DNA from: a virus
Length of the DNA: 43,132 nucleotides
Virus record (IMG/VR): IMGVR_UViG_3300045988_067234
Span: 1-43,132 of that record
Direction: 5' to 3' (one strand)
Positions 1,853-28,909 of this stretch are shown one piece after another. The first letter of the stretch is position 1. Every line of letters begins with the position of its first letter. Position numbers and translations under genes: made by a program. Under the pieces are notes generated by a model. It had not been told where the DNA came from and searched no databases. It saw only the letters and a list, made by a program, of their open reading frames with translations.

Positions 1853-1862
1853 GGAGGGCTAA

Positions 1863-3069: not shown

Positions 3070-3333
3070 CTGGATTATTAAGGAGAGTGACACATGATAC
3101 ATTAGGACAAGTTTTATGATGATTGCCCGTTGCCGGACGCGGAACCGGCGCATAAAAAAGAAAAGGAGATATGAAAAATGGCTGAAAGCAAAAATCTTAG
3201 CAAGCATTGCGAGCGGTGGCAAAGACATACGCAAGTAAACCGCGACTATGGCGAATGCAGACGCTTTTCGCTAACAACGAAAAATGACGATTTTTGCAGC
3301 CGCGGAGAAAGGCGGGGTTGACATCTGCTCGAA

Positions 3334-8943: not shown

Positions 8944-9197
8944 TAAGTGTACACGCGGGGCTGACGGGGATAGACATAAAAGGCCATGCGCACTATGCGC
9001 CGCAGGGCGAAGACATTGTTTGCGCGGCGGCGTCGATACTAGCCATGACGCTGCTAGACATCTGTGAGGACGCGGAGGTCAAGCGCGAGGACGGGCACAT
9101 CAGCATCAAGCACGGAGACCCGGCGGCGATACTCTTCGCGCGGCGCGGGTATAAGCTGCTGGCCGATGCGTACCCGGAGTTTGTGGAGGTAATATGA
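8940..9197 (+). CDS. prp: Prp-family cysteine protease (ribosomal-processing protease homologue)
   Basis: 85 aa with KGHAHYAPQGEDIVCAAASIL (His/Cys dyad context of Prp/DUF464). Matching LQ(F/L)F-A motifs sit at the scaffold and capsid N-termini. Confidence 0.8.
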   Translation: MISVHAGLTGIDIKGHAHYAPQGEDIVCAAASILAMTLLDICEDAEVKREDGHISIKHGDPAAILFARRGYKLLADAYPEFVEVI

Positions 9198-11071
9198 CGG
9201 TTACAACGACAGGGCGCGCCGCATACCGCGGAGGTGCGAGCCATACGGGATATCTCGCGGGCTACGAGACGGCGAACAAGCTCACCCGCGTGCTCCGCTA
9301 CACCTTCACAACGCCCGCGGACGGCGTGAGTAAACTGAGCTTCACGGGGGCACATCTGGCGCACAGTGCGTCGTACTCGTGGGGCGGGCTTAACTGGTAC
9401 GCCACCACGTCGCCGACGTCACACGTAAACGCGGGCGCAGGTTCCGCGAGCTGCGGGACGCTGACGATCACCGGCAACGGCAAGGATTATGACATCTCCG
9501 CGGCGGAAGCGGCGGTCAACCTCCCCCCGAACACAGAAGCCTACATATATATATTTCCCAACAACGCGAATTACTTTTTGTGGAATTTTGCAAACGTCGC
9601 GAGCCTGAACATAACGACGGCGGCGGGCAGCTCGACGATCGCGGCGATAACGCAGACGGTCGAAACGCTGGGGACGCTGACGGTGAGCCTTAACAAGGCG
9701 GTGGACGCGTTCCGCCACAGGCTGACGGTGACGGCGGGTGACAAGACGCTGTACACGTCGGAGCTGTTCGACGTTTTGCACAGCGTGACTGTGCCGAGGG
9801 CGTGGTTTGACAGCTTCCCAAGCGTCACGACGATATCTGCCACGGCTACGGTGACGACGTACAACGGCGACACGGCAGTGGGCACGGCGAGCGCGGCGGT
9901 GACGATAACGGCAGACGACGGCATGAGGCCGCAGATATCCGAGGGTTGGGCAACGGCTGCACCGTACAACATCGGCGCAGTGGCAGGGCTGACGGGCTAC
10001 ATCGCGGGCTATTCACAAGCGGAGATAAGCTTCGACGCCGCCAAGCTGACACAGGCGGCGGGGGCTGCGCTTGCAAGCGTCACAGTGACGTGCAGCGGCG
10101 CCGTGGTCACTGCGGCACCTTACAGGACGCCCATTCTTCTCGGCGCGGCTGACGTAGTGTGTGCGGCGACAGACAGCAGAGGCCGGACAGCGACGCAGAC
10201 AATACGGATAGAGCCGATGGCATATGCGCCGCCTACGCTGAGCCAGGTGCAGATACGTCGCTGCACGGCGGCGGGCGTGGAGGCCGAGGACGGCAACTAC
10301 TACAGCGCAAAGGCGACGGCGACATTCAGCGCGCTCGGCGGGCTGAACGCTCTGACGCTGACGGCAGCGCACAAGATACAGGGCGGCGTATACGGCACGG
10401 AGACGGTGCTCACGTCCGGCGCGGCGGCGATCATCGGCACGATATCCCCCGACAGCACGTATCAGGTGCGGATAACGGCGACGGATGCGCTCGGCAATAC
10501 GGCGGTGACGGTGACGTCCCTGCCGACGCGGCAATGGGCGCTGAAATTCCGTGCGGACGGACTCGGTGCGGCTTTTGGAAAAGCGCCGGAGCACGACAAG
10601 GCGCTGGAGATCCCGGGGGACTGGACATTTAGAATAGGCGGCAACGCCTTGACGGCGGAGCTGCTGGCGGAGCTGCTTGCGAGCCTGGCGGCGGACATAG
10701 CGCACCCGGTCGGGATGTATGTATGGCTGGCGGCGGAGACAGACCCGGCGACGCTATGGGGCGGCACATGGGAAAGGCAGCCCGAGGGGCTGACGCTGGT
10801 CTCGGCGGGTGACAACTACCCGCTGAACTCCACCGGCGGCGAAGCAACCCACACACTGACAATAGCTGAAATGCCTTATCACCAGCACCAAATGGTAAAC
10901 GGCAATAATGGTGGTTATGATTATAGTGGATGGACAAAATCAACTATTGTGCTTAGTGATGCAACAAAAGGTTGGGCAGGTAATGCTAATACAAGCTATG
11001 TCGGCGACAGCGCCGCTCACAATAACATGATGCCATACAAAGCGGCCTACTGTTGGCTGCGGACGGCCTGA
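9194..11071 (+). CDS. Tail fibre-like protein with C-terminal phage tail collar-type domain
   Basis: C-terminus GGEATHTLTIAEMPYHQH...GDSAAHNNMMPYKAAYCW resembles the tail-collar/MdpB motif. The body is T/A/G-rich and beta-like. Confidence 0.55.
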   Translation: MTVTTTGRAAYRGGASHTGYLAGYETANKLTRVLRYTFTTPADGVSKLSFTGAHLAHSASYSWGGLNWYATTSPTSHVNAGAGSASCGTLTITGNGKDYDISAAEAAVNLPPNTEAYIYIFPNNANYFLWNFANVASLNITTAAGSSTIAAITQTVETLGTLTVSLNKAVDAFRHRLTVTAGDKTLYTSELFDVLHSVTVPRAWFDSFPSVTTISATATVTTYNGDTAVGTASAAVTITADDGMRPQISEGWATAAPYNIGAVAGLTGYIAGYSQAEISFDAAKLTQAAGAALASVTVTCSGAVVTAAPYRTPILLGAADVVCAATDSRGRTATQTIRIEPMAYAPPTLSQVQIRRCTAAGVEAEDGNYYSAKATATFSALGGLNALTLTAAHKIQGGVYGTETVLTSGAAAIIGTISPDSTYQVRITATDALGNTAVTVTSLPTRQWALKFRADGLGAAFGKAPEHDKALEIPGDWTFRIGGNALTAELLAELLASLAADIAHPVGMYVWLAAETDPATLWGGTWERQPEGLTLVSAGDNYPLNSTGGEATHTLTIAEMPYHQHQMVNGNNGGYDYSGWTKSTIVLSDATKGWAGNANTSYVGDSAAHNNMMPYKAAYCWLRTA

Positions 11072-11082
11072 AAGGAGATAAT

Positions 11083-12156
11083 ATGGCTACTTACGAAGAC
11101 GAACGCAAGAAACAGGAGCAGGCCGCGATGAGCGGCGCGCAGCAGCAGAATACGCAGCAGCCCGCACAGCAGCCGGACAACACGCAGTATCAGGCGACCA
11201 TGCAGGCGCTTGAGGGCGCGAAGACGCAGGCACCGGTATACGGCGGGCAGTATGACCAGCAGATACAGGATATATACCAGCAGATAGTCAACCGCAAAAA
11301 GTTCAGCTATGACGCGGCGGCAGACCCGCTTTTCCAGCAGTACAAGCAGCAGTACACCCAGCAGGGTCAGCAGGCTATGCGCGACACGATGGGGCAGGCG
11401 GCGGCGCTCACCGGCGGCTACGGCAGCAGCTACGGGCAGGCTGTGGGGCAGCAGCAGTATGACGCGTACCTTCAGCGGCTCGGCGAGGTGCTGCCGGAGA
11501 CTTACAGCATGGCGCTCAATCAGTACAACGCTGAGGGCGACGCGCTGACGAACCAGTACGCGATGCTCAACGACATGGCGACGACCGACTACAACCGCTA
11601 CCGCGACCAGCTCGGCGACTGGCAGTACGACGAAGCGCTCAGACGGCAGGACGAGGAGACGGCATACAGCAGGCAGCAGGACGCATACAACAAGCTGCTG
11701 TACCTAATCAACAACACAGGCTACTCCCCTACCGACGACGAACTGACGGCGGCAGGGCTGACACGCGATCAGGCGGACAAGCTGCTCTATATGTGGCAGC
11801 TGCAAAACGCGGGCACAAGCGGTTCCGGCAGCGGCAGCGGGGGCGGCTCGGGCAGGAGCGGGAGCACGGGAGGAGACGGCAGGGCGGACGTCGACGCGAC
11901 AACGCTTGCCGGAATGAAACAGACGATATACAACCTCTACAAATATTACGGCAAGGACGCGGCAGCGGACAGGCTCGACCAGTACGCAGGCCAGCTCAAC
12001 GACGCGCAGTACGCGCAGCTTGTGCAGCAGGCGCAGGAGCTGATGAACGGCGCGGGGCAGGCAAAGAAAACCCCAACAATAAAAAAGCCGGGGCAGAAAA
12101 AGAAGAGCGGCGGCAGCGGCGGCTCCGGCAGACAGAGCACGGCGGCAACAAGATGA
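11083..12156 (+). CDS. Q-rich low-complexity virion protein candidate
   Basis: ATG at 11083 follows AAAGGAG. Q/Y-rich N-terminal half and a GTSGSGSGSGGGSGRSGSTGGDG linker (11812-11880). Confidence 0.5.
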   Translation: MATYEDERKKQEQAAMSGAQQQNTQQPAQQPDNTQYQATMQALEGAKTQAPVYGGQYDQQIQDIYQQIVNRKKFSYDAAADPLFQQYKQQYTQQGQQAMRDTMGQAAALTGGYGSSYGQAVGQQQYDAYLQRLGEVLPETYSMALNQYNAEGDALTNQYAMLNDMATTDYNRYRDQLGDWQYDEALRRQDEETAYSRQQDAYNKLLYLINNTGYSPTDDELTAAGLTRDQADKLLYMWQLQNAGTSGSGSGSGGGSGRSGSTGGDGRADVDATTLAGMKQTIYNLYKYYGKDAAADRLDQYAGQLNDAQYAQLVQQAQELMNGAGQAKKTPTIKKPGQKKKSGGSGGSGRQSTAATR

Positions 12157-12171
12157 AAACGGAGGCGGAGC

Positions 12172-15100
12172 ATGGCTTACAATCCTTTCCGAGACGGCAA
12201 GCAGACGCAGAGCACGCAGACCGGGCGAGTGAATCCGTTCCGGCAGACCAGCGCGGACAGAAGCGACAGAGAGCGCGTGATGCGCAACTGGCAGAGCGAC
12301 GCGGAGCAGCACGGCATATTGAACAATCCCCAGTACACCGACGAGGGCAAAGCGTATCAGCAGATGGCGCAGGAATACGCAAAGTACGGCACACAGTATC
12401 AGAACCAGCTCAAACAGGGCGTGACCGGGCGGCAGTGGGCGGCTGACACGGCGCGGCGGCTTGAGGAGCTTACACAGCAGCAGAGAGCGGCACAGCAGAC
12501 GGAACGGCGCAGGCAGGACGCGGACGCTATAGGCGATCCGGGACTGTGGGTGACTACGACGGAGCAGTATGACGCACTGCCAGAGGCTCGCAGACAGGAG
12601 GAGGCGCGCAAGGCAAAGCAGCGCCCTGCCGTAAGCCTTGCCGACTACGACAAGCGCATAGCGGAGCTGCGCAAGGAAAAAGAGTGGGCAGACTACTTCG
12701 CCGAGGCCGGGCTGCGCGACGAGGCAGGCTACAAGGCCGGCAGCGCCAGGGGCAAGGCCACGTATGAGAGTGCCGACGCTGCGACTGCGCGGAAGCGCAT
12801 CGGCGAGCTTGAACAGCGGCTGGTCGCGCTGAACCAAAACAGCGGCTGGGCGAGCACGGTGGAGCAGTCGGACGAGATCGAGCGTGAGCGGAACGCCATC
12901 CAGCAGGAGCTGGAATCTCTCGGCGCGGGCTACAAGAACGCGCAGCAGGCGGACTATACCACAAGCGCGAGGAATAATATCTCTGACAGATGGACGCGCG
13001 AGGAGCGAAACAACTTTTACTACCTCTACAACGACAATAAGGACGAGGCACAGGCTTATGCGCGGCGCATCAATGACAGATACGCTTATTCGGACGCGCA
13101 GGCGAAGAAGGAAAAGGCCGGCGAGTGGGCAAGTCAGAATTTCTGGACGGGCTTGGCAGGCACGGCGGCTTCCGTGGGGATGACCATGACGTCTCTTGCC
13201 GACACGCTTGACAGGACGAAAGAATATGCGGCGACCGGAGACGTCTCGGCCAAATCCGGCCTCACCCCCGCGGACATAGGCATGGCGATGACGTCCGCAA
13301 TTGCCTCGTCGCTGAACGAGAAGAGCGGGACTATCAACGACAATGTGTGGGTCATCGGCGGCAAGGGCTTGGGCGACCTATACGAGACGGGGGTAAGCAT
13401 CCTCAACTCCCTCGCATCTGTATACATGCTGGGCGGCGTGGGCACGTACGCCAACTTCTTCGGGCAGGCGAGCAAAACGGCCTACGAGGAGGGCATACAG
13501 CGCGGGCTGAGCGTAGATAAGGCGCTGACCTACGGCTACGCAAGCGGTGTCGCCGAGGTCGCGGGCGAGATGTTCTCAATAGAGCATCTGATAAAGATGA
13601 AGAACCCCAGCTCGCTCAAGGGCATTATCAAGAACATCTTCGTCCAGGGCGGTATTGAGGCAAGCGAAGAGTCGGCCACGACGCTGATGAACACGATATC
13701 GGACGCAATAATAAACGGCGACAAGAGCGAACTTGCGAGCAACTACTACGCGCTGATACAGGCGGGTTACAGCCCTGCGGACGCTGAAAAGCTTGTAATA
13801 GCGGACTGGACTCAGGGCGTTATGTATGATGCCTTGGGCGGCTTTGTGAGCGGCGTTGCAAGCGCCGGCGTCCACAGCACCGTGCAGGGCAGCATGACAT
13901 ACAAGGGCGACGCGCAGGAGCTTATCGACTACGCCAAGAGCGAGGGCGCGGACACTGCGGCGGCGAAACGTGCGCAGAAATACGAAAAGCGCCTACAGAG
14001 CGGGAAGCGCATGACGAACTATCAGGCGGGGACGCTCACGGAGCTTGCGCAGGAGGCCGTGGTCTCAAAAGACCTCGATAACATCCGCGAGGCCGTCGGC
14101 AAGCGGCTTGCCGCGCTCGGCGAAAACAGCTCAGCGCTCACGGAAGCCGTTGTGCGGCAGGCGGTGCAGCAGGAGGCAAAGGCGGCGGACATCAGCGTCC
14201 CGAAGGTCACGGAGAAGCAGCGCGGCCTGATCCAGAACAGCAAGGCGGCAAAGCGCGTGCTCTCCGAGATGGACATCGGCAACATGCGCATGGAGACCGC
14301 GGCGGAGCTGAGCGGGCATGACGGCAGCCAGTATCAGCGCTCTAACGAGTGGGCACGGGATATCGGCACACGCATCATTGCACCCGGAGAATACGGTGTA
14401 CGCAGCACCGACACCGTGACCGCAGAGGAGAAGAGGGCTGACGTGAAGGTCGGAGACGAGAGCGGAAAGGTCGTCGGCTTCAAGAACGGCATGGCGCGCG
14501 TCGAGGTCACGGAGAACGGCAAGAGTACCATCCGGGAGGTAAAGCCCGACGACGTGCAGCAGCTCCCCAAGCAGACGCGCAGGCTGTTTGACGAGATATC
14601 CCGCTATGACGGCGACACGCAGGCGGCAATGTACGCGGCGTATATGCCGGGGCAGGACATAGCAGCATACGTGCAGGCGGCGGACACTGCGATGAACCTC
14701 TACGGCGCGCAGACCAAAGCAACACTTGAGCAGGCGCGCAGTTTCGGCAAGGCGACCTTCCGGATGCTGAGCGACGCCCAGCTCGACGCGCTGATGCAGG
14801 CAGGGCGCAAGCTCGCGGATCAGCGGAAAGCGGCGGCGGAGCGCACCGGCGAGGGCAAGGGCGAGGTCAAGCAGGGCAAGGTGTCCTACGACGGCGGTGA
14901 GGCCGGCGGGCGCAAGCTCAAAGCCCCAAGCAAGGAAGCGATAGACCGCATGAGCGACGCCGAGAAGACCCTCGCGGAGGCGCTGACGGCTACGGGTGTG
15001 AACGTTGTGTTCTACGAGAGCGAGGCAAACGCCGAGGGCAGATACAGCGGCGCGCAGGGCATGTACTACAACGGCACGGTTTACCTCGATGTGAACGCAG

Positions 15101-18100
15101 GCATGAACAGCGTGGAGAGCGGGCAGCGGACGATAGTTCTGACGGCGGCGCACGAAATGACGCACTTCATCCGCGAGAACAGCGAGGCCGGATATATAGC
15201 GCTGCGCGAGTACATAACCGACAGGCTCATGCAGCAGGGGCTGGATATCGAAGAGCTTGTCACGCAGAAGCGCGCAAGAGAGAGCCGCGAGCTGAGCTAT
15301 GACGAGGCCGTGGAGGAGGTAATAGCCGACGCGTGCGAGACGGTTCTGACGGAGCCGACGGCAATAAGGCAGCTTGCAAGCGATAATATGCCTCTGGCAA
15401 AGAAGATACGCAAGTGGCTGAATGATTTCTTCAGGAAAATCAAAAGCGCGTTTGCGGGGCTTGAGGCCGTCCACGACGAGGCCAAGGCAATGACCGACTA
15501 CATGGACGAGCTGCGGGCAATGTGGGACGACGCACTCGCCGACGCCGTGCGGAACAGGGCAAATAAAAACGCCGCCGAAAACGGCGACGGGGTAAGACAT
15601 TCTTATGGCGGCAGGGGTGCAGAGAACGCCAACCTTGATGAATTAGACAGGGCTAAGCGTTTGCTTGCGCAAGGAGTTGACAAAGATGCTGTTAGGAGAG
15701 ATACAGGCTGGTTTAGAGGCGCTGATGGTCAATGGCGCTTCGAGATAGACGACAGTGGATTGATTTACAGCAAGACCGGGAATATTCTCGGCTATGCAGA
15801 CAGCGCGAGAGCGCAGCATGAGTATGCGGCGAAGTGGCTTGCGCTTACTTCGGCGGAAATGACGGACGCGCAGCGTGGCGAACTGGCTGAATACATAAAG
15901 CAGCGCGACAACGGCGAGTTCAGCCAAGAGCTGTATAACAAACTAACAGAATATTGGGGAACCGCCTTTGAGGAATACGCCGCAGCGAAAGAGGCAATGC
16001 TTGCCAGGTCAAACGCGTCCGGGGTTACGGTGGGCGACTACATAAAGCACGACGAGCTTTTCGGGCAATACCCGCATCTTAAGGACTTAGGGCTTATTTT
16101 TGAGGACTTGGGCAGCGGAGAAAAAGGATATTTTAATGGGCTCGAGATTGTTATTGACCGCAGTCTAAAAGACGCGCCGGAAAAAACCCTGCTGCACGAA
16201 ATACAGCACGCTATACAGCGGTTTGAGGGTTTCAGCAAGGGCGCATCCGTGGAGTATTGGAATAGGCAACTTGAGGCAGGGAAGAATGTGCGCACGAGAG
16301 CACAGCTCACGGAAGAAGCTCGGATAGAGAACCAGCTTACGGAACTGCGTATTAAGTCGCCAGATTTTTACGCAGATATAATGCAGCTTGAGGAAATGAC
16401 GCCTACCATTCCGAGGGGCAAAATCGACTGGAATACGCTTGAGCAGATAGAACCTGACCCACCGGAATGGCAACGTTATGACACACGCAGAGAGGAACTC
16501 GAACAAAAGTACGGCGAGGACAGGGTGTTCTCTGCGATAGACCTTTTCAATGACCTCACGCAGAGCCGCAAGACGACGCAGCAACTGCCGAGTGAGCTGT
16601 ATTTCAACACAGCCGGAGAGATTGAGGCGCGGGACGTGGCTGCGAGAGCCGCGCTTACAAAAGCCGAGAGAGCCGCCAAAGCGCCAAACCTCGGCGACGG
16701 CAATACGGTTTGGGCGAAGTATTCCATTCGTGAAGACGCTCCGGCGGAGATACACAAAGCCGTAACAGACAAAAACTATGGCGGCGACATCCGACTGACA
16801 GACACTACCCCGAGTATAATGCTTGCTCACAAGGGCGTGCGAAATCTTCCGATGCTCATGAAGGCTTCTCATATCCGCGAGAACATCCTTACGAAGCAGG
16901 AAGCGGCGAAGCTTGGTCTTGATACGGGCAAGGGCATAAATTATCACGGACTTGGCGAGGAGGTTTTCAAAAAAGTTATCGACAGTCTTGACGATATAAG
17001 CGTTGGCTATCGAGGAACGCCGAAATCAAACGACCCGTCCAGACGCGAGAATAGCTTTCTTCTTATCTCTACCGTGAAGGACAACGGCAGGAATACCATT
17101 GTTGTTCCGGTATACATTAACGAGATGGGCAGTTACAACCGTGTGCTCATAAGAACTAACAAGATTGCATCGGTCTATGGTAAAAGCAGCTTGAATGAGT
17201 ATATTAAAAGAGAAATTGCAAAGGGGAATCTTGTACGCATAAAAAAAAGAAGCCCCGCCAACAGTGAATCCCCGGCTCCAATTGCCGTCGATTATAATGG
17301 CGTCACTTCTCAGGCAAAGGCGGCAGATCAGACTGCGATGGCCTTTGGTAATACTAGTATACGCTCCTCTTCCGAAAATAGCAATACCAAAATTAAAAAA
17401 TCTGAGAGAGATGTTGACCTGACTGCAAAATATCCGCAGCTCAACCTCAACGAGGACATATCGGAGCTTGACGGCGTACCCGCAATAGAGCTTACCGACG
17501 GCAGCGTTCTGCCGATAACCGAGCGCGACGGCAGATACCCGACGCACGTTTCATTCATTGAAGCGAACCGCATAGACGTTGACGACCTCAAGAGCGGCGG
17601 CTGGATAGGCAACGGCGTATATGACCCGTCTTTCACCAGCGACACACAGCGCTATATAGAGCGGCAGCAGGCGAGAAAACGCGTGGCAGAGCTGACGGGC
17701 AAGCAGTATGAGCAGTTCAGGTATTCCATGCGCGACGTGACGGTCGATGACACACGGGAGGAGCTGGCACAGCGCAGAGCGGCATACGCAAGGCTTGAGC
17801 GCGAGAACGCGGCACTGAAAGCCCGCGTGGACTACCTCAAAGGGCAAACGAAGCTGACGAAGGAAGCGACGGTGCGCGAGAGCGACGTTGCCAAGTATGC
17901 GCGGAGCATACTCAAGGAGTACACGAGTCGTGCGGACAGCGCGGAGATACAGCAGCAGCTTCAGGAGCTGGGCAACTACATCGTGCAGAACGATGCGCGG
18001 GTACTGAGCTACGACGAGATACGCAGCCGCGCAGAAGATATTGCGGAAACTGTGCTTGACAACGCCCATGCTGTTATCGCCGAAGAAATGCCGGGGCTCG

Positions 18101-21100
18101 GCGAATATAAGGAGTTCTTGAGAAACACGGCGCTGAAGGTGAGCGACAACACACTGAACGATCTGCCGGAGGGATTCCGCAAAGAATACTCGGGCAAGAT
18201 AAAGCTCCGTGCAGACGGGCGCAGCGTAGACAGCGTATGGATGGAACTGCAGGAAAGATACGGTGAGGGCGAGTTCCCAAGCAACATCTACGCGCAGAGC
18301 GATATGCTTGAGATAATGGCCGACAAGTTCAGCACATGGCAGGCCATAGAGGGCAACCCGTTTTACAACTATATGGGCGAGGCAATACAGAGCCTGACGA
18401 ACGACATCATGGACATGGTGCTCGGAGCGGATATACGCCAGACTGCGCCGACGTACGCAGACCGCGCGGCGGCCAAGCTTGCCCGCGAACGCGCGAAAGG
18501 CGCGGAAGCGGTTGCGGCTGAACGGGAACGCGGCAGCGCGCGAGCCGAACGGCTTCAGGCGATGTTAGAGAGCGAACGCGAGCGGCGGCGCGAAGAAGTA
18601 GCCCGCGAAAAGGCTGACAAGTGGGCGGCGGTCGGCTCGGTGCGCGAATACTACCAGAGCATGATAAAGCGCCAGAGGGCGGAGCGCGCAGAGTCAGCGG
18701 ACAGGGGCAAATACCGTGCGCAGGTCGAAAAGCGCACGAAAGAACTCAGCGACTGGCTGCTCACCAACAGCGACAAGCAGCATGTGCCGGAGGTGCTGAA
18801 AAAAACCATAGGCGATTTTCTCGCGACCCTGGATTTCACGAGCCGCAGAGCTCTTGAGGGCGGCACAGCTACGCAGAAGGACGCACGCTTTCAGCAGAGA
18901 CTCAGCGCTTTGCAGGAGCTGCTGAGGAAACAGGCGGCAGCGCTGGAAGAGAACTCCGACGCAGACACCTTTACCGGATATCTGGACATTGACGGAGACA
19001 CGATGGACGCGCTCGCACAGCTCGTGCAGGACGTGAACGCGGCAATCGGCAGCGACCGCACATGGACTGTGAACCGGATGAATGCAGCAGACTTGGCGCG
19101 GCTGGATCAGGTGCTGAAGGTTCTGCAGCACAGCGTGAAAAACATGAATAAGCTGCTGGCAAACGCGCACTTCAAAAGCTCCATAGAAGCGGCGCAGAAC
19201 ACCATGACGCGCATGGACGCACTGAAAACGAACAGAAAGTATGCAGGCAAGGTCAAGGACTTCTTCGCATGGGACAACGTAACGCCGATTTATGCGTTCC
19301 GGCGCTTCGGCGACGGCGGCAAAGCAATTTTCGATTCCTTTACGCGCGGCTGGGACAAGATGGCATTCAACATGAGAACCATCTATGACTATGCCGAGAA
19401 CGCGTACACCGCCGACGAGGTCAGAGCATGGGAAAAGGATATACGCGAGGTTGAGCTGAGCACGGGGAAGAAGGTTCGTATCCCTGTGAGCGCAATCATG
19501 GAACTATATGTGAGCGCAAAGCAGGAGCAGGCTATGAACCACCTGAACGGCGGCGGCCTCCGCGTGAGCGACTTCAAGGATGGCCGGGCGACGGTAAACC
19601 AGACGGAACACTATCTTATGACGGCTGAGGACATCGCGGCAATAACCGGGGAACTGAGCGACAGGCAGAGGGCGGTCGCGGATGCGCTTCAGCGCTTCGC
19701 GGCGGGCACCGGTGCCGCATGGGGCAATGAAGTCAGCATGAAGCGCTTCGGATACAGGGCGTTCACCGAGGAAAGCTACTGGCCGATAGCGACGGATGAC
19801 AACACACGAGACGCCATTGACCCGCAGGCAAGAGCAAACGATATGTACCGTCTGCTCAACATGAGCATGACAAAGGGCAGAAATGCGAAAGCAAACAACG
19901 CACTTGTTGTGGGCAGCATCTTCGACACGTTCTCGGCGCATATGGCAGATATGGCGAAATACAACGCACTTGCATTGCCGGTGCTGGATGCGATGAAGTG
20001 GTACAACTACCGCGAGAAAGAGACTCTTTCAACGGGGCAGATAAAGACCGCTTCCGTGCAGGGCGCGATAGAGGGTGCGTATGGCCGAGGCGCGAACAAC
20101 TACATCGTAACGTTGATGAAGGATATCAACGGCAAACAGGAGCTTGGGCGCGGAGAGGATCTTCCACGGAAGATGATCTCGAACTACAAGGTGGCCTCGG
20201 TGGCGGCAAACGTCCGTGTGGCGCTCCTTCAGCCGACCTCATATGTCCGCGCCGGAATGGAGCTCGACCCGAAGTATCTTGCAAAGGGTGCTTTGATAAA
20301 GGGCGGCGTGCAGGAAATGATGAACTATTCCGGCACTGCAATCTGGAAGGACTTCGGCGGCTATGACACCAACATAAGCCGCAACATCCGCGACCAGATA
20401 AAGCATGACGCCACAGCCGGCGAGCAGATAAAGGAAAAGAGCATGGTGCTTGCTGAACTCGGCGACCGTCTGACATGGGGCGCGCTGTGGAACGCCTGCA
20501 AGCTCGAAGTGCAGGACAAGCAGCATTTGAGCGGCGAGGAACTTATGCAGGCCACGGCAAACAGATTCCGCGAGGTCATCTATCTGACACAGGTAATGGA
20601 CAGCACATTGACGCGCAGCCACAATATGCGCAGCAAGAGCACGTATGCCTCTCTCGCTACGGCGTTTATGTCTGAGCCTACGCTGAGTTACAGCATGGTG
20701 CAGGATGCTTTCATGGATTATATGGACGAACGCAAGATAAGCAAGAACGGGACAGCGGCATGGCAGAAGACACGCGGGAAGCTCGTAAAGGCGCTCGGCA
20801 TATACGCGATGAGCGCGGCTGCAAGCGCCATTATTGAGTCCCTTTGGGATGCATTCCGCGACGATGATGACTACGAGACGCTGCTCGAAAAAATTCTCGA
20901 AGCCATGTTCGGCACAAAGGAGGGTTGGTTCCTCGACGGCAACCTTATAGGCGACCTGCGAATAACCACAAAGCTGCCGCTTGTGAAGGATATCGTTTCG
21001 ATGTTTGACGGCTACAGCAACGACCGCATGGACACGGCGTGGGCGGCAAACCTTGTAAAGGCGTATAAGATATGGAAGGAAACGATAGACCTTGCGACAG

Positions 21101-22290
21101 GCAAGCTCGACAAGCCGACTGACGCCACATATAACGGCAAGATGACTTGGTACGGGAAACTGTACAACACGCTGAAGCCGCTGAGCCAGATGACAGGTTT
21201 TGCAATTGCGAACCTCACGCGCGACGTTTCGGCGATCTGGAACACCACATTCGGCGCATGGACGGGCAAGAAGCTCAGAACATATTACCCCGGCGTGAAG
21301 ACATCCGTAAAATACGCGTATCAGGACGGGTATCTGACAGCTGAGGAGGCCGAGAAGATACTCATTAACGAGGGCGTAGCGGAAGACAAGAATGACGTGT
21401 ACTTTATGCTGGATGAGTGGGACAGCGGAAAGAGCAGCTACAGCAAGTACGGCGCGATCAAGGACGCGGCGAAGGCAGGGGACAAAGCGGCATACAAGAG
21501 CGCGCTTAAAGACCTTACCGACCACGGTATAACAGAAAAGAACGCGCAGAGTGCGATCCGCAGTGCACTCAAGGAGTGGTATCAGGGCACGGAAGACACG
21601 CCGCAAAGCGTAAGCAAGCAGGACACGATCAAAAAGCTTCAGGAATTCACCGGGATGAGCAAGGCCGACGCGGAGGCGACGGCGCTTGAATGGACGTGCA
21701 AGATCGTTACCGGCGTGGAATACAGCGATATAAAGACGGCGTATCTCGATGGCGATGTGAACGCGGTCAAAGCGAAGCAAATGCTTATGAGATACGGCGG
21801 ACTCACCTCCGAGGAGGCGGACAAGCGCATTCAGAACTACAAGTTTGAGGAGCAATACGGGTTCACTTACAGCAGGAGCAACGTGCAGGACGAATATATC
21901 AGAGGCAGTATAAGCGAGGCGACCGCAAAAACCATGCTGACGCAGTACGGGGGTAAGACGGATGAGGAGGCGGAGCGCAGCATACAGGCGTTTAATTTCC
22001 TCCGAAGCTATCCGGAATACGACGCGGAGGATATAACCGAGGCGCAGATAGCAAAGTACTATGAAAGCGTGGACGGCAGCGGCGTGAGCGTACGGGAATA
22101 CGTCAACTACGCCAGCTTTATACGCAGCACAAGCGCCGATGTAGACGCAGACGGCAACGCGATAAACGGCTCGAAGATGCGTAAGGTGATGGAGTATATC
22201 GACAGCCTAAACCTGACGTCGCAGCAGAAAGACGTACTATTCCTGACACAGTACGCGAAGAGCAGCTTGAGAAAGACCCCGTGGCACTAA
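12172..22290 (+). CDS. Giant (3372 aa) polyvalent virion-associated protein with two HExxH zincin-like modules and a MuF-C-like domain
   Basis: Single uninterrupted ORF. HEMTH at 15151-15165 and HEIQH at 16195-16209. GWFRG..WRFEI and AGEIEARD motifs. MuF-C-like block at about 16700-17260. Gly-rich hydrophobic segments at about 13140-13880. Confidence 0.85.
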   Translation: MAYNPFRDGKQTQSTQTGRVNPFRQTSADRSDRERVMRNWQSDAEQHGILNNPQYTDEGKAYQQMAQEYAKYGTQYQNQLKQGVTGRQWAADTARRLEELTQQQRAAQQTERRRQDADAIGDPGLWVTTTEQYDALPEARRQEEARKAKQRPAVSLADYDKRIAELRKEKEWADYFAEAGLRDEAGYKAGSARGKATYESADAATARKRIGELEQRLVALNQNSGWASTVEQSDEIERERNAIQQELESLGAGYKNAQQADYTTSARNNISDRWTREERNNFYYLYNDNKDEAQAYARRINDRYAYSDAQAKKEKAGEWASQNFWTGLAGTAASVGMTMTSLADTLDRTKEYAATGDVSAKSGLTPADIGMAMTSAIASSLNEKSGTINDNVWVIGGKGLGDLYETGVSILNSLASVYMLGGVGTYANFFGQASKTAYEEGIQRGLSVDKALTYGYASGVAEVAGEMFSIEHLIKMKNPSSLKGIIKNIFVQGGIEASEESATTLMNTISDAIINGDKSELASNYYALIQAGYSPADAEKLVIADWTQGVMYDALGGFVSGVASAGVHSTVQGSMTYKGDAQELIDYAKSEGADTAAAKRAQKYEKRLQSGKRMTNYQAGTLTELAQEAVVSKDLDNIREAVGKRLAALGENSSALTEAVVRQAVQQEAKAADISVPKVTEKQRGLIQNSKAAKRVLSEMDIGNMRMETAAELSGHDGSQYQRSNEWARDIGTRIIAPGEYGVRSTDTVTAEEKRADVKVGDESGKVVGFKNGMARVEVTENGKSTIREVKPDDVQQLPKQTRRLFDEISRYDGDTQAAMYAAYMPGQDIAAYVQAADTAMNLYGAQTKATLEQARSFGKATFRMLSDAQLDALMQAGRKLADQRKAAAERTGEGKGEVKQGKVSYDGGEAGGRKLKAPSKEAIDRMSDAEKTLAEALTATGVNVVFYESEANAEGRYSGAQGMYYNGTVYLDVNAGMNSVESGQRTIVLTAAHEMTHFIRENSEAGYIALREYITDRLMQQGLDIEELVTQKRARESRELSYDEAVEEVIADACETVLTEPTAIRQLASDNMPLAKKIRKWLNDFFRKIKSAFAGLEAVHDEAKAMTDYMDELRAMWDDALADAVRNRANKNAAENGDGVRHSYGGRGAENANLDELDRAKRLLAQGVDKDAVRRDTGWFRGADGQWRFEIDDSGLIYSKTGNILGYADSARAQHEYAAKWLALTSAEMTDAQRGELAEYIKQRDNGEFSQELYNKLTEYWGTAFEEYAAAKEAMLARSNASGVTVGDYIKHDELFGQYPHLKDLGLIFEDLGSGEKGYFNGLEIVIDRSLKDAPEKTLLHEIQHAIQRFEGFSKGASVEYWNRQLEAGKNVRTRAQLTEEARIENQLTELRIKSPDFYADIMQLEEMTPTIPRGKIDWNTLEQIEPDPPEWQRYDTRREELEQKYGEDRVFSAIDLFNDLTQSRKTTQQLPSELYFNTAGEIEARDVAARAALTKAERAAKAPNLGDGNTVWAKYSIREDAPAEIHKAVTDKNYGGDIRLTDTTPSIMLAHKGVRNLPMLMKASHIRENILTKQEAAKLGLDTGKGINYHGLGEEVFKKVIDSLDDISVGYRGTPKSNDPSRRENSFLLISTVKDNGRNTIVVPVYINEMGSYNRVLIRTNKIASVYGKSSLNEYIKREIAKGNLVRIKKRSPANSESPAPIAVDYNGVTSQAKAADQTAMAFGNTSIRSSSENSNTKIKKSERDVDLTAKYPQLNLNEDISELDGVPAIELTDGSVLPITERDGRYPTHVSFIEANRIDVDDLKSGGWIGNGVYDPSFTSDTQRYIERQQARKRVAELTGKQYEQFRYSMRDVTVDDTREELAQRRAAYARLERENAALKARVDYLKGQTKLTKEATVRESDVAKYARSILKEYTSRADSAEIQQQLQELGNYIVQNDARVLSYDEIRSRAEDIAETVLDNAHAVIAEEMPGLGEYKEFLRNTALKVSDNTLNDLPEGFRKEYSGKIKLRADGRSVDSVWMELQERYGEGEFPSNIYAQSDMLEIMADKFSTWQAIEGNPFYNYMGEAIQSLTNDIMDMVLGADIRQTAPTYADRAAAKLARERAKGAEAVAAERERGSARAERLQAMLESERERRREEVAREKADKWAAVGSVREYYQSMIKRQRAERAESADRGKYRAQVEKRTKELSDWLLTNSDKQHVPEVLKKTIGDFLATLDFTSRRALEGGTATQKDARFQQRLSALQELLRKQAAALEENSDADTFTGYLDIDGDTMDALAQLVQDVNAAIGSDRTWTVNRMNAADLARLDQVLKVLQHSVKNMNKLLANAHFKSSIEAAQNTMTRMDALKTNRKYAGKVKDFFAWDNVTPIYAFRRFGDGGKAIFDSFTRGWDKMAFNMRTIYDYAENAYTADEVRAWEKDIREVELSTGKKVRIPVSAIMELYVSAKQEQAMNHLNGGGLRVSDFKDGRATVNQTEHYLMTAEDIAAITGELSDRQRAVADALQRFAAGTGAAWGNEVSMKRFGYRAFTEESYWPIATDDNTRDAIDPQARANDMYRLLNMSMTKGRNAKANNALVVGSIFDTFSAHMADMAKYNALALPVLDAMKWYNYREKETLSTGQIKTASVQGAIEGAYGRGANNYIVTLMKDINGKQELGRGEDLPRKMISNYKVASVAANVRVALLQPTSYVRAGMELDPKYLAKGALIKGGVQEMMNYSGTAIWKDFGGYDTNISRNIRDQIKHDATAGEQIKEKSMVLAELGDRLTWGALWNACKLEVQDKQHLSGEELMQATANRFREVIYLTQVMDSTLTRSHNMRSKSTYASLATAFMSEPTLSYSMVQDAFMDYMDERKISKNGTAAWQKTRGKLVKALGIYAMSAAASAIIESLWDAFRDDDDYETLLEKILEAMFGTKEGWFLDGNLIGDLRITTKLPLVKDIVSMFDGYSNDRMDTAWAANLVKAYKIWKETIDLATGKLDKPTDATYNGKMTWYGKLYNTLKPLSQMTGFAIANLTRDVSAIWNTTFGAWTGKKLRTYYPGVKTSVKYAYQDGYLTAEEAEKILINEGVAEDKNDVYFMLDEWDSGKSSYSKYGAIKDAAKAGDKAAYKSALKDLTDHGITEKNAQSAIRSALKEWYQGTEDTPQSVSKQDTIKKLQEFTGMSKADAEATALEWTCKIVTGVEYSDIKTAYLDGDVNAVKAKQMLMRYGGLTSEEADKRIQNYKFEEQYGFTYSRSNVQDEYIRGSISEATAKTMLTQYGGKTDEEAERSIQAFNFLRSYPEYDAEDITEAQIAKYYESVDGSGVSVREYVNYASFIRSTSADVDADGNAINGSKMRKVMEYIDSLNLTSQQKDVLFLTQYAKSSLRKTPWH

Positions 22291-22439: not shown

Positions 22440-23465
22440 ATGCACACAAAATTTGACTTCGACCTCCAGCTTTTTGCCGAGGGCGGCGCACCCGCAGGCG
22501 AGGGCGGAGGAGAAGCAACGGGCGAAAGTACTGCCGACGCCGGGCAGAGTTTTGAAGCAAGACTTGAGGCCTTGAACGTACCCAAAAGCAAGATAAGAAA
22601 GGGCGCATACAAGAATGCCCCGACACCCGCGGCGCCTGCACAGCAGGAGGAGCCGCACGAGAAGGAGCCGGAGCAGGAAGAAAGCGGAGCCGCCGTCCGC
22701 AAGAGCTGGGATGAGGTCAAGGCAGAGTACAAAGCGGAATTTGACGCAGAGATGCAGGGCACGATCAAAAGACGGCTGAAGAACAGCGACGCAGAGCTTG
22801 AGACACTGCGCGCGAAGGAAGCCGCGGCCGCGCCGCTGTATGACTATCTGGCCAGCCGCTACGGACTCGACGCCGCTAACCTGAACGTGGAGGAGCTTAT
22901 ACAGAAGTTCCGCGAAGACGACGCCATGTTTGAGGAGGACGCGGCGAGACTGGGGACAGACGCAGGCACGGCCAAAAAAATGATTCTGGCCGAGCAGGAC
23001 GGCAAGCGCAAGGCGCGCGAAGATGAAGCCAACCGGCAGGCACGGCAGAAGGAGCTGGAGGACGCATTCAAGCGTCAGCAGGCTTCCAGCCATTTCGACG
23101 AGCTGCGCAGGCAGGGCGAGGAGCTGAAGAAAGAGTTTTCGGACTTCGACCTTGCGGCAGCAATGAGCGACGAAGCGTTCGTGAAATTCACGCAGCCGGG
23201 GAGCAACATAAGCGTACGCGCGGCGTATCTGGCACTGCATCCGGAGGTGCAGGAGCAGCGCGTGCAGCAGGCGGCAGCAAAGGCAACGGAGGCTGTTTCC
23301 GCTTCGGTCGCCGCCAACAGGGCAAGGCCGAGGGAAAACGGCAGCCAGGCCGCCACGCTTGCGACAAACGACCCCAGAAACATGACAAAAGAGGAACGCG
23401 CGGCACTGCGTAAGAGAATTTACGCCGCCGCCTACAACGGGGAAAAGCTCCCGTTAGGAGGCTGA
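22440..23465 (+). CDS. Scaffolding protein
   Basis: Highly charged, helical, E/A/K/R-rich 341 aa directly upstream of the capsid gene. The N-terminus MHTKFDFDLQLFAEGG carries a Prp-type cleavage motif. Confidence 0.75.
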   Translation: MHTKFDFDLQLFAEGGAPAGEGGGEATGESTADAGQSFEARLEALNVPKSKIRKGAYKNAPTPAAPAQQEEPHEKEPEQEESGAAVRKSWDEVKAEYKAEFDAEMQGTIKRRLKNSDAELETLRAKEAAAAPLYDYLASRYGLDAANLNVEELIQKFREDDAMFEEDAARLGTDAGTAKKMILAEQDGKRKAREDEANRQARQKELEDAFKRQQASSHFDELRRQGEELKKEFSDFDLAAAMSDEAFVKFTQPGSNISVRAAYLALHPEVQEQRVQQAAAKATEAVSASVAANRARPRENGSQAATLATNDPRNMTKEERAALRKRIYAAAYNGEKLPLGG

Positions 23466-23488: not shown

Positions 23489-24601
23489 ATGAACAAGTTT
23501 TTTAACCTTCAGTTTTTCGCCGATGCGGGTACGCTTGTAAACGCTACCGGCAACTATGTCAACGCGGGCACCGGCACGACCACTGCGTTCGACGGCACCA
23601 ACACCCTCGCACCCGAACTCAAGGCGTTCTACGACACTGAGCTTCTCGAAAACGCCCGCGTAGAACTGTTCTACGCGCAGTTCGGCAAGAAGCAGCCGCT
23701 CCCCAAGAACCACAAGGGGCAGGTCGAGTGGCGCAAGTGGAACGCTTTTGAGCGCGCCTCGAAGCTGACCGAGGGCGTCATCCCCACCGGTCAGAAGTTC
23801 GGCGTTAGCGCTCTGACCGGCAGTATCGACCAGTACGGTACGTACACCTCAATAACCGACAAGCTTGAGCTTCGCGCCTATGACGATGTTATCCTGGGCG
23901 CGACCGAGGAAATGGGCGCGTCGGCAGCGGAAACTCAGGAGTGGCTCATCCGTGACGCGCTGCTCGTCGGCACCAACGTCCTCTACTGTGACAACGTCAA
24001 CAAGGATACCGGCGCGGTCATCGGCACTCCGACCAGCTGTGCGACTATGGGCGCAGGCGGCAGCACTTCTAGCGGCGGCGGCTCCACTCCTGACGGCTGG
24101 GCGCTGCTTACTCCGGCAATGGTCAATAAGGCGGTGACTATCATGAAGAAGAACCGCGTCCCGCGCATCAACGGCCGCTATTACGCGGTCATCCACCCGT
24201 CCGTTGCGCATGACCTGCGCGAGTGCGAGGGCTGGATAGAGGCGCACAAGTACGCAGCTCCCGAGGAGCTGTTCAACGGTGAGATCGGCGAGCTGCACGG
24301 GGTACGCTTCATAGAGGACGCCTTCGCCCCCATTCTCGGCGGCACAAACTATAAGAATAAGTCGGAAGGCGTTACCTATGCGACCTATTTCTTTGGCAAG
24401 GACGCCTTCGGCATCATCGACCCGGAGGGCGGTGCGCTGGAGATGATAATCCACGACAAGAAGGAGGTCGGCGGGCCGCTGGACCAGTTCAGCACCATCG
24501 GCTACAAGTTTGAGACGAACGGCGCGACTATCCTCTATCAGGAGCGTATGCTCCGCGTGATGAGCGTGTCCACCTTCTCCGCAACTGACGAGGCCAACTG
24601 A
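23489..24601 (+). CDS. Major capsid protein
   Basis: 370 aa following the scaffold. The N-terminus MNKFFNLQFFADAG carries a Prp-type motif. A strong hairpin lies downstream. Confidence 0.85.
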   Translation: MNKFFNLQFFADAGTLVNATGNYVNAGTGTTTAFDGTNTLAPELKAFYDTELLENARVELFYAQFGKKQPLPKNHKGQVEWRKWNAFERASKLTEGVIPTGQKFGVSALTGSIDQYGTYTSITDKLELRAYDDVILGATEEMGASAAETQEWLIRDALLVGTNVLYCDNVNKDTGAVIGTPTSCATMGAGGSTSSGGGSTPDGWALLTPAMVNKAVTIMKKNRVPRINGRYYAVIHPSVAHDLRECEGWIEAHKYAAPEELFNGEIGELHGVRFIEDAFAPILGGTNYKNKSEGVTYATYFFGKDAFGIIDPEGGALEMIIHDKKEVGGPLDQFSTIGYKFETNGATILYQERMLRVMSVSTFSATDEAN

Positions 24602-24913: not shown

Positions 24914-25279
24914 ATGACCGTACTTGAAATAATAAATAGGGCGGACACGCTTGAGCCGAACGCATATTCGGCGGACGAGAAAATACGCTGGCTGTCAAAC
25001 CTCGACGGGAAAATCTTCGAGGAGGTCATAAAGACCCACGAGGGCGGCGCGGAGAGCTTCACCCCGTACAGCACAGGCGACGAGGAGCTGCTGCTCGCAG
25101 AGCCGTACGGCGAGGACGTGTACACCCATTACATCGCGGCGATGATCGCGGCGGGAAACTCCGAGGCGAGCCGGTATAATCAGCAGATAGCGATGTACAA
25201 CGCGAACTACGGGCAGTGGTTCAACTGGTACAACCGGACGCACAGGCCGCTGCCGAAAAGCAAACGTTTCGTGTTCTGA
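24914..25279 (+). CDS. Hypothetical structural protein (head-tail adaptor candidate by position)
   Basis: TAGGAG RBS; 121 aa; the assignment rests on position only. Confidence 0.4.
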   Translation: MTVLEIINRADTLEPNAYSADEKIRWLSNLDGKIFEEVIKTHEGGAESFTPYSTGDEELLLAEPYGEDVYTHYIAAMIAAGNSEASRYNQQIAMYNANYGQWFNWYNRTHRPLPKSKRFVF

Positions 25280-27821: not shown

Positions 27822-28589
27822 ATGAGCAAAACAAATACCGGGCTCGTCGAGTACGCACTGGCACAGCTGGGGAAACCCTACTGGTGGGGCACTTTCGGGC
27901 AGACGGCGAACGCCGGACTACTCGCAGCCAAGCGGCAACAGTACCCCGGCTATTACACAGCAAGAGACTTTGCCTCGCAGTTTGGGCAGAAGGTACACGA
28001 TTGCGTCGGGCTTATAAAGGGCTTCCTGTGGTGCGACACACCGGACAGCGAGCCTATATACAAAGCATCGCAGGACGTTGCGGTAAGTGGACTGTATATG
28101 TCCTGCCACGAAAGCGGCAGCATAGACACCATGCCCGACATACCGGGCGTGTGCGTATTTATGCGGGACATGTCCCACGTCGGCGTTTACGTCGGCGGCG
28201 GCGACGTCGTAGAGGCAACCGGCCACGCGCGCGGCGTGGTCAAGACCAAGCTTGCGGGGCGCGGCTGGGGGCTGTGGGGTAAGCCCCGCTGGATAAGCTA
28301 CGAGGCTGCTGCCACTCCTGCACAGCCCGCACAGACCACCACACAGGCGACCACCTCGGCGCTGACCGTCACCGGCTTGCCGCTGCTGCACTACGGCGAC
28401 AAGGGCGAGTGCGTCCGCTCGGCGCAGCTGCTCCTCATCGGGCGCGGCTACTCCTGCGGCAGGTGCGGCGCTGACGGCGAGATAGGGCAGGGCACTTTCA
28501 ATGCGGCGGTGGCGTACCAGAAAGCTTGCGGCTTGCAGCAGGACGGCATCATAGGCGCGCAGACTTGGGCGCGGCTGATAGGAGGTTAA
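27822..28589 (+). CDS. Endolysin: NlpC/P60 (C40) peptidase plus C-terminal PG_binding_1 domain
   Basis: Cys context HDCVGLIKGFLW and His context MSHVGVYVGGGDVVEA. C-terminus LHYGDKGECVRSAQLLL...DGEIGQGTFNAAVAYQKACGLQQDGIIGAQTWARL. Confidence 0.85.
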   Translation: MSKTNTGLVEYALAQLGKPYWWGTFGQTANAGLLAAKRQQYPGYYTARDFASQFGQKVHDCVGLIKGFLWCDTPDSEPIYKASQDVAVSGLYMSCHESGSIDTMPDIPGVCVFMRDMSHVGVYVGGGDVVEATGHARGVVKTKLAGRGWGLWGKPRWISYEAAATPAQPAQTTTQATTSALTVTGLPLLHYGDKGECVRSAQLLLIGRGYSCGRCGADGEIGQGTFNAAVAYQKACGLQQDGIIGAQTWARLIGG

Positions 28590-28592
28590 GGC

Positions 28593-28895: not shown

Positions 28896-28909
28896 AAGGG
28901 GGTGAAAAT

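Follow-up and report, generated by a model that had tools for sequence, protein, structure and literature searches.

In 2017, Iyer et al. predicted that polyvalent proteins are multi-enzyme 'first-strike' weapons that are injected (J Bacteriol; PMC5512222); the class is abundant, and almost no member of it has been studied experimentally. Several giant phage proteins serve as precedents. Gp50 of coliphage N4 has an N-terminal region for injection, its payload in the centre and, for encapsidation, a C-terminal region of ~1,400 amino acids (aa) with a metallopeptidase (MPTase) (PMC5512222). Gp47 of phi24B, a 2,811-aa polyvalent protein, was abundant in virions by proteomics, was unseen in the cryo-electron microscopy map, and has been proposed to be an encapsidated ejection protein (bioRxiv 10.64898/2026.04.10.717836). 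The Dar proteins of phage P1 are packaged. In C. (Enterocloster) clostridioforme LM41, the ~41 kb prophages phi1 and phi4 carry an 8-kb open reading frame (ORF), ~20% of the genome, with 'limited similarity to LPD3', and one recognisable tail gene ('baseplate wedge'); their particles are released spontaneously and are podovirus-like by transmission electron microscopy (PMC11318856). Here we describe a 3,372-aa protein encoded by IMG/VR virus record IMGVR_UViG_3300045988_067234, the whole 43,132 nucleotides (nt) of which are referred to hereafter as the window.

By domain content and genetic setting, this giant protein belongs to the phage-type polyvalent proteins as Iyer et al. 2017 define them: it combines several disparate domains, has LPD23- and PBECR-like content and lies among late genes. 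The class is already known, and giant ORFs in podovirus-like prophages of Lachnospiraceae have been mentioned in passing (LM41 phi1/phi4, PMC11318856). In the searchable literature we found no account of the size of the family, its layout, its orphan core, its partner gene or its junction motif, which are described below.

An uninterrupted giant gene with a fixed layout

The giant gene starts 16 nt past a 357-aa gene, on the + strand like the structural genes, and has its own Shine-Dalgarno (SD) sequence, a GGAGG ribosome-binding site at 12161-12165, 6 nt 5' of the ATG. At 10,119 nt it makes up 23.5% of the window, and its 3,372 codons are free of stops, in agreement with an earlier, sequence-only reading of this DNA that had described a single 10.1-kb ORF filling about a quarter of the genome. 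The worry raised there, that re-sequencing might reveal an ORF split by stops or frameshifts, was not borne out. The identical 3,372-aa product is encoded on four contigs, two of them from separate runs (ERR13913093 and ERR1136717), and ~100 relatives have unbroken ORFs of 2,400-4,580 aa at the equivalent place. Because the ORF is identical on independent contigs and unbroken in so many relatives, an assembly or frameshift artefact is excluded for practical purposes.

An exhaustive HMMER search with aa 1850-3049 of the giant as query, against clusters at 50% identity, gave 3,717 clusters at E<=1e-3, of which 2,838 reached E<=1e-30. Almost all members are 2,500-4,800 aa long, with the match near the C-terminus. 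IMG/VR yielded 40 loci, mostly viral contigs of 20-44 kb with a few shorter fragments, and species-representative genomes yielded 219 matches, nearly all in gut and rumen Clostridia (Lachnospiraceae, Oscillospiraceae, Ruminococcaceae, Butyrivibrio, Enterocloster and Waltera). The family is found in ~40-kb phages and prophages without a tape measure. Among the PHROGs, aa 1853-3029 correspond to phrog_22978 (E 1e-191), a family without an assigned function and with a profile of 3,513 positions; searches of the whole giant protein against NCBIfam, PADLOC and PDB sequences returned nothing.

The layout was derived from a coverage map of 189 homologs, which gave the shares of homologs listed below, and from landmark detection among 97 giants of at least 2,400 aa.

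12172-22290, + strand: giant ORF, 3,372 aa plus stop, uninterrupted from the ATG at 12172 to the TGA at 22288-22290
12172-13068, + strand: N-terminal Q/R/E-rich region, aa 1-299, poorly conserved save for a WTxEE...YxYL motif near aa 273-300
13069-14031, + strand: block A1, aa 300-620, Gly/Ala/Ser-rich, with an E(G/A)SEE motif; ~45% of homologs, 45 of 97 giants
14749-15591, + strand: block A2, aa 860-1140, zincin-like; ~70-80% of homologs, 79 of 97 giants
aa ~1150-1850: variable region, common to ~5% of homologs
15592-16713, + strand: cassette 1, aa 1141-1514, LPD23 (15598-15759) followed by an HExQHxIQxxEGF...TAGEIEARD module; GC ~0.52
16714-17307, + strand: cassette 2, aa 1515-1712, starting with YSIRE (16720-16734), with a MuF_C/PBECR-like match; GC 0.47-0.48
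17308-17721, + strand: small conserved segment, aa 1713-1850, SERDVDL...GWIGNGVYD, also present in database fragment P0004
17722-18648, + strand: block B-N, aa 1851-2159, starting with YSMRD (17722-17736), long charged helices; ~50% of homologs
18649-21321, + strand: C-terminal core, aa 2160-3050, in all 189 homologs
21322-22287, + strand: C-terminal tail, aa 3051-3372, helical hairpins with recurring (Y)GGxTxEEA-type motifs; ~50% of homologs

The succession of conserved, variable and conserved regions is, as judged from these alignments, fixed across the family. The Q/R/E-rich composition noted earlier for the N-terminus was confirmed over aa 1-299.

A zincin-like domain in the conserved N-terminal block

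The HEMTH string of block A2 (aa 994-998, nt 15151-15165) and the HEIQH string of cassette 1 (aa 1342-1346, nt 16195-16209) lie exactly where the sequence-only reading had placed them. H994, E995, H998 and Glu1049 (15316-15318) are invariant in 20 diverse loci, and in an alignment of the window with 103 homologs, 104 sequences in all, the H, E and H are each shared by at least 90%. The block has the consensus G.NG.Y..GTIYLD(I/V)NAG...HE(L/M)TH(F/Y)...(D/E)EV(V/I)AD. An AlphaFold2 (AF2) model, with a predicted local distance difference test score (pLDDT) of ~60-90 in A2, places a helix (929-939) before three strands (944-948, 963-966 and 969-973), the HExxH helix (987-1003) and a helix bearing the Glu (1043-1060). 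This is the order given for zincin-like MPTases by Iyer et al. (PMC5512222).

We call the first HExxH region a conserved zincin-like domain on the strength of the invariant H994, E995, H998 and E1049 and the predicted order of strands and helices, and not of family membership: it is not a member of MPTase-PolyVal (PF18818), a profile that gave one match among 20 relatives, at E 0.042. The zincin reading of HEMTH made from the sequence alone is supported in this sense, with its residues invariant, while the proposed likeness to the MPTase-PolyVal profile was not found.

Gly-rich hydrophobic segments, noted before and likened to membrane-inserting proteins, are present at aa ~324-570 and conserved in the family. 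Their highest 19-residue Kyte-Doolittle mean is 1.19, and the region holds one uncharged stretch of at least 18 residues (aa 324-343); the segments are by these measures weakly hydrophobic and not classical transmembrane helices, and membrane insertion is not convincing. The AF2 model of block A1 had a pLDDT <50 and was unusable. Profile searches of block A against Pfam (member by member, with the segments of 20 relatives) and PDB gave nothing above noise. Between A1 and A2, at aa ~757-790 (14440-14541), a small four-stranded beta-barrel is confidently predicted; its local Foldseek matches to KOW/SH3-like structures were weak and non-significant.

A C-terminal core common to the family

The C-terminal half, described earlier as large and uncharacterised, matches no Pfam or PDB entry; it is also the most conserved part of the protein and the one that defines the family, with ~30 invariant polar or aromatic positions in the core. 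The AF2 model of aa 2100-3200, built from a 36-sequence alignment, is mostly alpha-helical (mean pLDDT 75.6, predicted template modelling score 0.60). Foldseek found no significant neighbour of this model in the PDB (best E 0.055, TM <= 0.11). In BFVD it matched C-terminal pieces of many giants of uncultured tailed phages, with E values down to 4e-43 and TM of ~0.4-0.58, and the UniProt names of these matches follow their cassettes (MuF C-terminal domain, nuclease, PolyVal ADP-ribosyltransferase, LPD-containing). As such matches reach environmental phages at 10-15% identity, the modelled core fold seems to serve polyvalent giants widely as a carrier module. The core of 27 members was unrecognised by Pfam or PDB profiles. 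Phage_Mu_F (PF04233) was matched neither by the window protein nor by the 27 core segments or 20 block-A segments of relatives, and no tape measure family in Pfam or PHROGs was assigned to the giant.

Exchangeable cassettes in the variable centre

Each of the two central cassettes of the window protein matches a domain known from polyvalent proteins, the second at borderline strength. LPD23 (PF18838) matches aa 1143-1196, a GWFRG...WRFEIDD block, over profile positions 1-54 of 58 at E 1e-22 (80.2 bits against a cut-off of 27). The module that follows carries HEIQH, and its motifs H..ELF.AYP, LHExQHxIQxxEGF and TAGEIEARD are invariant in 12 homologs including an F116-like protein. The second HExxH module with its trailing AGEIEARD, singled out in the sequence-only reading, is a second zincin-like candidate; the AF2 model of cassette 1 was unusable (pLDDT <50).

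In cassette 2, MuF_C (PF18819), a family assigned to the BECR RNase fold by Iyer et al. (PMC5512222), matches aa 1623-1690 (nt 17038-17241) over profile positions 34-96 of 103. The score was 27.1 bits in the whole protein, below the cut-off of 27.6, and 29.0 bits with the central 710 aa alone. The MuF-C-like block expected at about 16700-17260 was found within that interval, at borderline strength. A profile check for LPD or MuF-C similarity had been the earlier reading's own test, and LPD23 passes it clearly. Together with the borderline MuF_C, the late-operon setting and the ART-PolyVal, PBECR and LPD repertoire of relatives, this upholds the interpretation as a polyvalent protein.

The centre differs widely between relatives. 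The segment from A2 to the core spans ~350 to ~2,300 aa in 43 relatives and ~200 to ~2,600 aa in 79 landmark-mapped giants. Among the 43, the central region contained the ADP-ribosyltransferase (ART) family ART-PolyVal in 25, LPD3 in 11, MuF_C in 8, ResIII/SNF2/Helicase_C in 4-6, an Eco57I-type methylase, PBECR5 and DUF3990 in 3 each, PBECR3 and a Strawberry-notch-type helicase in 2 each, and PBECR2 and LPD1 in 1 each. When the window protein was compared with GenBank phages by tblastn, matches were at the level of cassettes only: polyvalent giants from Bacillus phages and from F116-like Pseudomonas phages share its LPD23-HExxH cassette.

Of all relatives L001 is the closest: over aa 1-1140 and 1714-3372 its identity is 96-98%. 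Exactly nt 15593-16712, which make up the LPD23-HExxH cassette, are missing from it, and farther along it has another piece, of 613 nt. Block A has a GC of 0.60-0.64, which drops to 0.52 in cassette 1 and to 0.47-0.48 in cassette 2 before it recovers. The swap in L001 and the low GC of the cassettes indicate recent horizontal exchange. Seen along the gene, a GC trough of 0.47-0.55 at 15172-17571 coincides with both cassettes, the rest of the gene lying at 0.56-0.64.

A recurring motif at cassette borders

A motif, [KR][YF][SQ]x[RW][DE], recurs at cassette borders, usually after a polar linker (...NPDIR, ...NTK) and ahead of the first residues of the next module. In the window it occurs at all three independently mapped borders:

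aa 1143, VR-HSYGG: start of cassette 1
aa 1517, AK-YSIRE: start of cassette 2 and edge of the L001 indel
aa 1851, FR-YSMRD: start of block B-N

Family-wide, 54 of 56 occurrences of [YF]S[LIMFV]R[DE] fall in the variable region, against 34% expected by length. The wider form [YF][SQ]x[RW][DE] was counted 125 times (14.7 in shuffles), and 110 of these cases lie in the variable region (binomial p 6e-36, uncorrected for relatedness). Three readings of the motif are possible: a protease site, the conserved start of a module, or a joint left by recombination. At the nucleotide level the junction motifs within the window have 8 nt in common, which is uninformative for the recombination-joint model. 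A text search of PMC5512222 turned up a proposal of polyprotein autoproteolysis; the word 'linker' did not occur, and the passages retrieved gave no cleavage-site motif.

Late genes, gene order and a likely partner gene

The giant gene is surrounded by genes for virion morphogenesis and lysis, of which terS, terL, portal, Prp, tail protein, scaffold and major capsid protein (MCP) are on its strand:

5112-5597: terS (PHROG)
5590-7065: terL (PHROG, Pfam)
7117-8943: portal, P22/SU10 type
8940-9197: Prp protease (Pfam, PHROG)
9194-11071: tail protein (DUF859 and Gp10_C)
11083-12156, + strand: likely partner gene, coding for a Q-rich protein of 357 aa with a Lys-rich tail and a Gly/Ser linker; unmatched in PHROGs and Pfam
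22440-23465: scaffold-like protein (phrog_13908, a PHROG family without an assigned function), named from position and Prp motif
23489-24601: MCP (PHROG, Pfam)
24914-25279: small protein, PHROG without assigned function
25290-27050: 586-aa 'internal virion protein', phrog_511 (PHROG)
27822-29167: endolysin and holins (PHROG)

Gene-family searches of the window matched no tape measure, tail tube or sheath anywhere in the genome, and no other + strand ORF is larger than 625 aa. The earlier statement that neither a tape measure nor a tail tube gene exists elsewhere is consistent with this, and the podovirus-like inference stands, given late genes without tape measure, tail tube or sheath.

The placement between portal/Prp and scaffold/capsid genes, which the sequence-only reading had noted, holds in the window and is peculiar to its clade. 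In most relatives the giant gene closes the structural module, after a tail protein and directly before the lysin, and the commonest order is MCP, small protein, 586-aa protein, (tail protein), 357-aa protein, giant and lysin. When the window was compared with loci L002-L120, the block of tail protein, 357-aa protein and giant lay between Prp and scaffold in its clade only, and by this comparison of gene orders it is a module transposed inside the late operon. Throughout the related loci the giant gene is in the structural module, beside tail and lysin or portal and capsid genes. Its most faithful neighbour is the 357-aa gene, found in 72 of 120 related loci and always immediately 5' of it. 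From this synteny, the meaningful linkage is to the tail/ejection end of the structural module and to the 357-aa gene, and not to head morphogenesis as such. The 357-aa protein, which has a conserved core at aa ~60-180, is a likely partner, as a chaperone or a co-ejected protein. Paralogy with the Q-rich N-terminus of the giant was considered and dropped, as no similarity between the two was detected.

A Prp (ribosomal-protein-L27-type) cleavage motif opens the scaffold-like protein (MHTKFDFDLQLFA|EGG, 22440-22480) and the MCP (MNKFFNLQFFA|DAG, 23489-23525). These N-terminal motifs fit trimming of both proteins by the phage Prp at 8940-9197. Prp trimming of such N-termini has been described for Staphylococcus phage 80alpha. 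The motif (LQ[FL]FA) is absent from the giant protein. P0004, a 980-aa database fragment, joins a Prp domain in frame to the last part of block A of a homologous giant, with LPD23, MuF_C and B-N behind it; either it is a deletion variant without tail gene, partner gene and the bulk of block A, or the assembly is chimeric.

The window is the genome of a small, temperate gut phage of Clostridia, with an integrase (32048-33352, - strand), a repressor-like gene, a replication initiator, a DnaC-like loader and a DNA methyltransferase. Its ends carry a 78-bp exact terminal direct repeat, and it is therefore a complete circular assembly. That repeat is located (window 1-204, 42945-43132) within a region of degenerate tandem repeats, with copies offset by 24 nt: GACAACAGCTCC.TCTGGGCGGATGGCAACAGCTCCATCTATACGTAT...; the gene spanning the window ends encodes an imperfect 8-residue repeat. 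Megablast of the window against GenBank phages gave no match and no close relative.

Proposed function and alternatives

On position, content and precedent, we think it probable that the giant is a capsid-internal polyvalent protein, ejected together with the DNA, that delivers effectors by means of a chassis and a payload and is possibly cut by its own zincin. Virion packaging, ejection, autoproteolysis and cassette activities are what we infer from these lines of evidence. The protein would be made late, with the virion proteins, and block A (aa ~300-1140) and the core with the tail (aa ~1850-3372) would load a few copies of it into the procapsid. At infection the conserved ends would take the protein out via the portal and short tail, and they may help to form a passage across the Gram-positive envelope. 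The payload, here the LPD23-linked HExxH module and the MuF_C/PBECR RNase-like module, would act in the cytoplasm once a new cell is infected, to counter host defence or to aid takeover. The zincin-like domain would cut at the [KR][YF][SQ]x[RW][DE] junctions, either inside the head or once the protein has entered the cell, and free the cassettes. The ejection proteins of P22 amount to ~2.5 MDa in a T=7 head with a ~43-kb genome, and a few copies of a 375-kDa protein are thus physically plausible. The P22 set comprises ~12 copies of gp7, 12 of gp16 and 30 of gp20 (PMC8402733).

A narrower version of this proposal is a dedicated chassis for capsid loading and ejection, so far unrecognised, that consists of block A including the zincin, a C-terminal core of ~1,200 aa and the linked 357-aa protein, with the junctions as zincin cleavage sites. 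We regard it as tentative, and its failure as the likelier outcome.

Several results weigh against packaged delivery or against parts of it. The window protein did not match MPTase-PolyVal at E<=1, and Foldseek of the whole 1,200-aa block-A model against the PDB gave no significant match and no solved zincin. The MuF_C match is partial and borderline. The wider junction motif is found in only 76 of 176 giants, its counts are phylogenetically non-independent, and it could be a module start or recombination joint instead of a protease site. No head-incorporation domain, membrane-spanning segments or similarity to known ejection proteins was found in the core. A 375-kDa internal protein would compete with a 43-kb genome for room in a presumed T=7 head. 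Finally, packaging, ejection and cleavage are inferred for every member of the family.

A serious alternative, compatible with packaged delivery and in our judgement rather unlikely, is that the giant is a structural ejectosome or tail-extension protein whose core and block A form a trans-envelope conduit, with the cassettes as passengers and HExxH acting on the cell wall. Such a protein would stand in for gp7/16/20 of P22 or gp14/15/16 of T7; the genome shows no tape measure, no tail tube and nothing else that is obviously an ejection protein. The universal core, with its ~30 invariant positions, is under strong constraint; the Gly-rich segments are weakly hydrophobic and conserved; and the giant gene of most relatives follows a tail protein and precedes the lysin. 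This role is the one assigned to gp47 by the authors of the phi24B study (bioRxiv 10.64898/2026.04.10.717836). However, the protein has no hydrophobic helices of transmembrane grade, neither AF2 model resembles solved ejectosome or tail-needle structures, and the payloads (ART, RNases, methylase/helicase) target cytoplasmic molecules.

It is improbable that the giant stays out of the virion altogether, as a late cytoplasmic polyprotein for anti-defence, takeover or superinfection exclusion that acts within the cell that produces it or on co-resident elements. Without injection, ARTs, nucleases and methylases could still function, no recognisable head-targeting domain is present, and the Prp-type N-terminal cleavage motif of scaffold and capsid is missing from the giant. 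Yet late anti-defence enzymes would come too late for incoming DNA, the gene lies invariably within the structural module and is linked to tail genes, and a huge conserved non-enzymatic scaffold would be left unexplained; in the precedents of N4 gp50, the P1 Dar proteins and phi24B gp47, the protein is packaged.

A cryptic virion RNA polymerase of N4 or crAss type in the conserved C-terminal half is very improbable. A length of ~3,400 aa and the podovirus context recall N4 gp50 and the crAss-like virion polymerases, and a DIDGD string is present at aa 2272-2276. This string is not conserved even in the nearest distant homolog, P0002 (D-P-D), and was rejected as a polymerase motif; moreover, Pfam gave no RNA polymerase match, PDB gave no significant match by sequence or Foldseek and hence no solved RNA polymerase, and a temperate phage with repressor and integrase needs no injected polymerase. 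Last, the chance is negligible that assembly or annotation created the ORF artificially, or that it is a decaying pseudogene made of several fused genes: against its unusual length, and against fragment P0004 with its Prp domain joined to the middle of a homolog, stand the same ORF in independent assemblies, the ~100 relatives with a single frame of 2,400-4,580 aa, the 3,717 clusters that contain the module, nearly all of them giant proteins, and a proper SD and ATG.

If the narrower version, with the junctions as zincin cleavage sites, is true, any cassette between two junctions would be packaged, injected and released as a free effector. The family would then be a natural plug-and-play delivery platform of thousands of podophages of gut and rumen Clostridia, with the first defined processing code for polyvalent proteins, and could be engineered for protein delivery. 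The giant takes up about a quarter of each ~40-kb genome and is found in prophages of cultivable Waltera, Enterocloster, Butyrivibrio and Alitiscatomonas; the clean layout, the natural cassette swaps and the candidate processing motif make it a tractable system for packaging, ejection and cutting. Its central region is a catalogue of anti-defence or takeover enzymes (ARTs, RNases, helicase-methylases) directed against abundant human-gut bacteria.

Comparison with known systems

The window protein shares with the polyvalent proteins of Iyer et al. (2017; PMC5512222) the arrangement of a multidomain giant among the late virion genes of a portal/terminase phage, the same Pfam domains (LPD23 and MuF_C here; ART-PolyVal, PBECR, SNF2 with methylase, LPD1 and LPD3 in relatives) and an HExxH domain proposed for polyprotein processing. 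It differs in that its conserved N-terminal block and ~900-aa core match no Pfam LPD or other family and its first HExxH is unrecognised by the MPTase-PolyVal model. A fixed chassis, a layout with central cassettes and a junction motif were not found by text search in that paper.

N4 gp50 is likewise a podovirus giant, of ~3,500 aa. The window protein has no RNA polymerase domain, and no sequence or fold similarity between the two was detected; its zincin is upstream of the payload, whereas the MPTase of gp50 is downstream, and its payload is variable and carried by a temperate phage, whereas that of gp50 is fixed. The Stx phage phi24B is, like the window, a short-tailed temperate phage whose giant has LPD domains and MuF-C. 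The LPD families of gp47 are other ones (LPD5, LPD1, LPD38), its host is Gram-negative, and tblastn detected no similarity of the window protein to it.

The LM41 phi1 and phi4 ORFs are likely to belong to the same family, judged from their published description, and Enterocloster prophages are among the window's relatives (L106 and L119). In phi1 and phi4 the giant gene is found 3'-terminally in the prophage, as in the majority of relatives, instead of between Prp and scaffold.

MuF/SPP1 gp7 and P1 DarB/DdrB are head-internal effector carriers, and the MuF_C (PBECR) domain is common to them and the window protein. In the window's clade the giant gene occupies the gp7/MuF slot, after the portal; the protein is ten times larger and is without a detected Phage_Mu_F. 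The DarB-type methylase/helicase is missing from the window copy and present in relatives.

F116-like Pseudomonas phages (Hollowayvirus) are temperate podoviruses that encode a 3,782-aa 'PLxRFG domain-containing protein' just before the lysis genes. The family motif P-x-YAF-x-RFG was considered as the 'PLxRFG' of these giants and rejected by hhalign, which gave a probability of 0.08 for the F116-like C-terminus against the core profile of the window family; NCBIfam gave no PLxRFG match in the window protein. In the 3,782-aa protein of Pseudomonas phage Baskent_P6 (L121, 5566-16914), LPD23, LHELQHAIQ..EGF and AGEVEAR form a cassette at aa ~2146-2377, with an extra HExxH at aa 2488. By its conserved motifs, the LPD23-HExxH cassette crosses between giants of Gram-negative and Gram-positive podophages whose carriers are unrelated in sequence.

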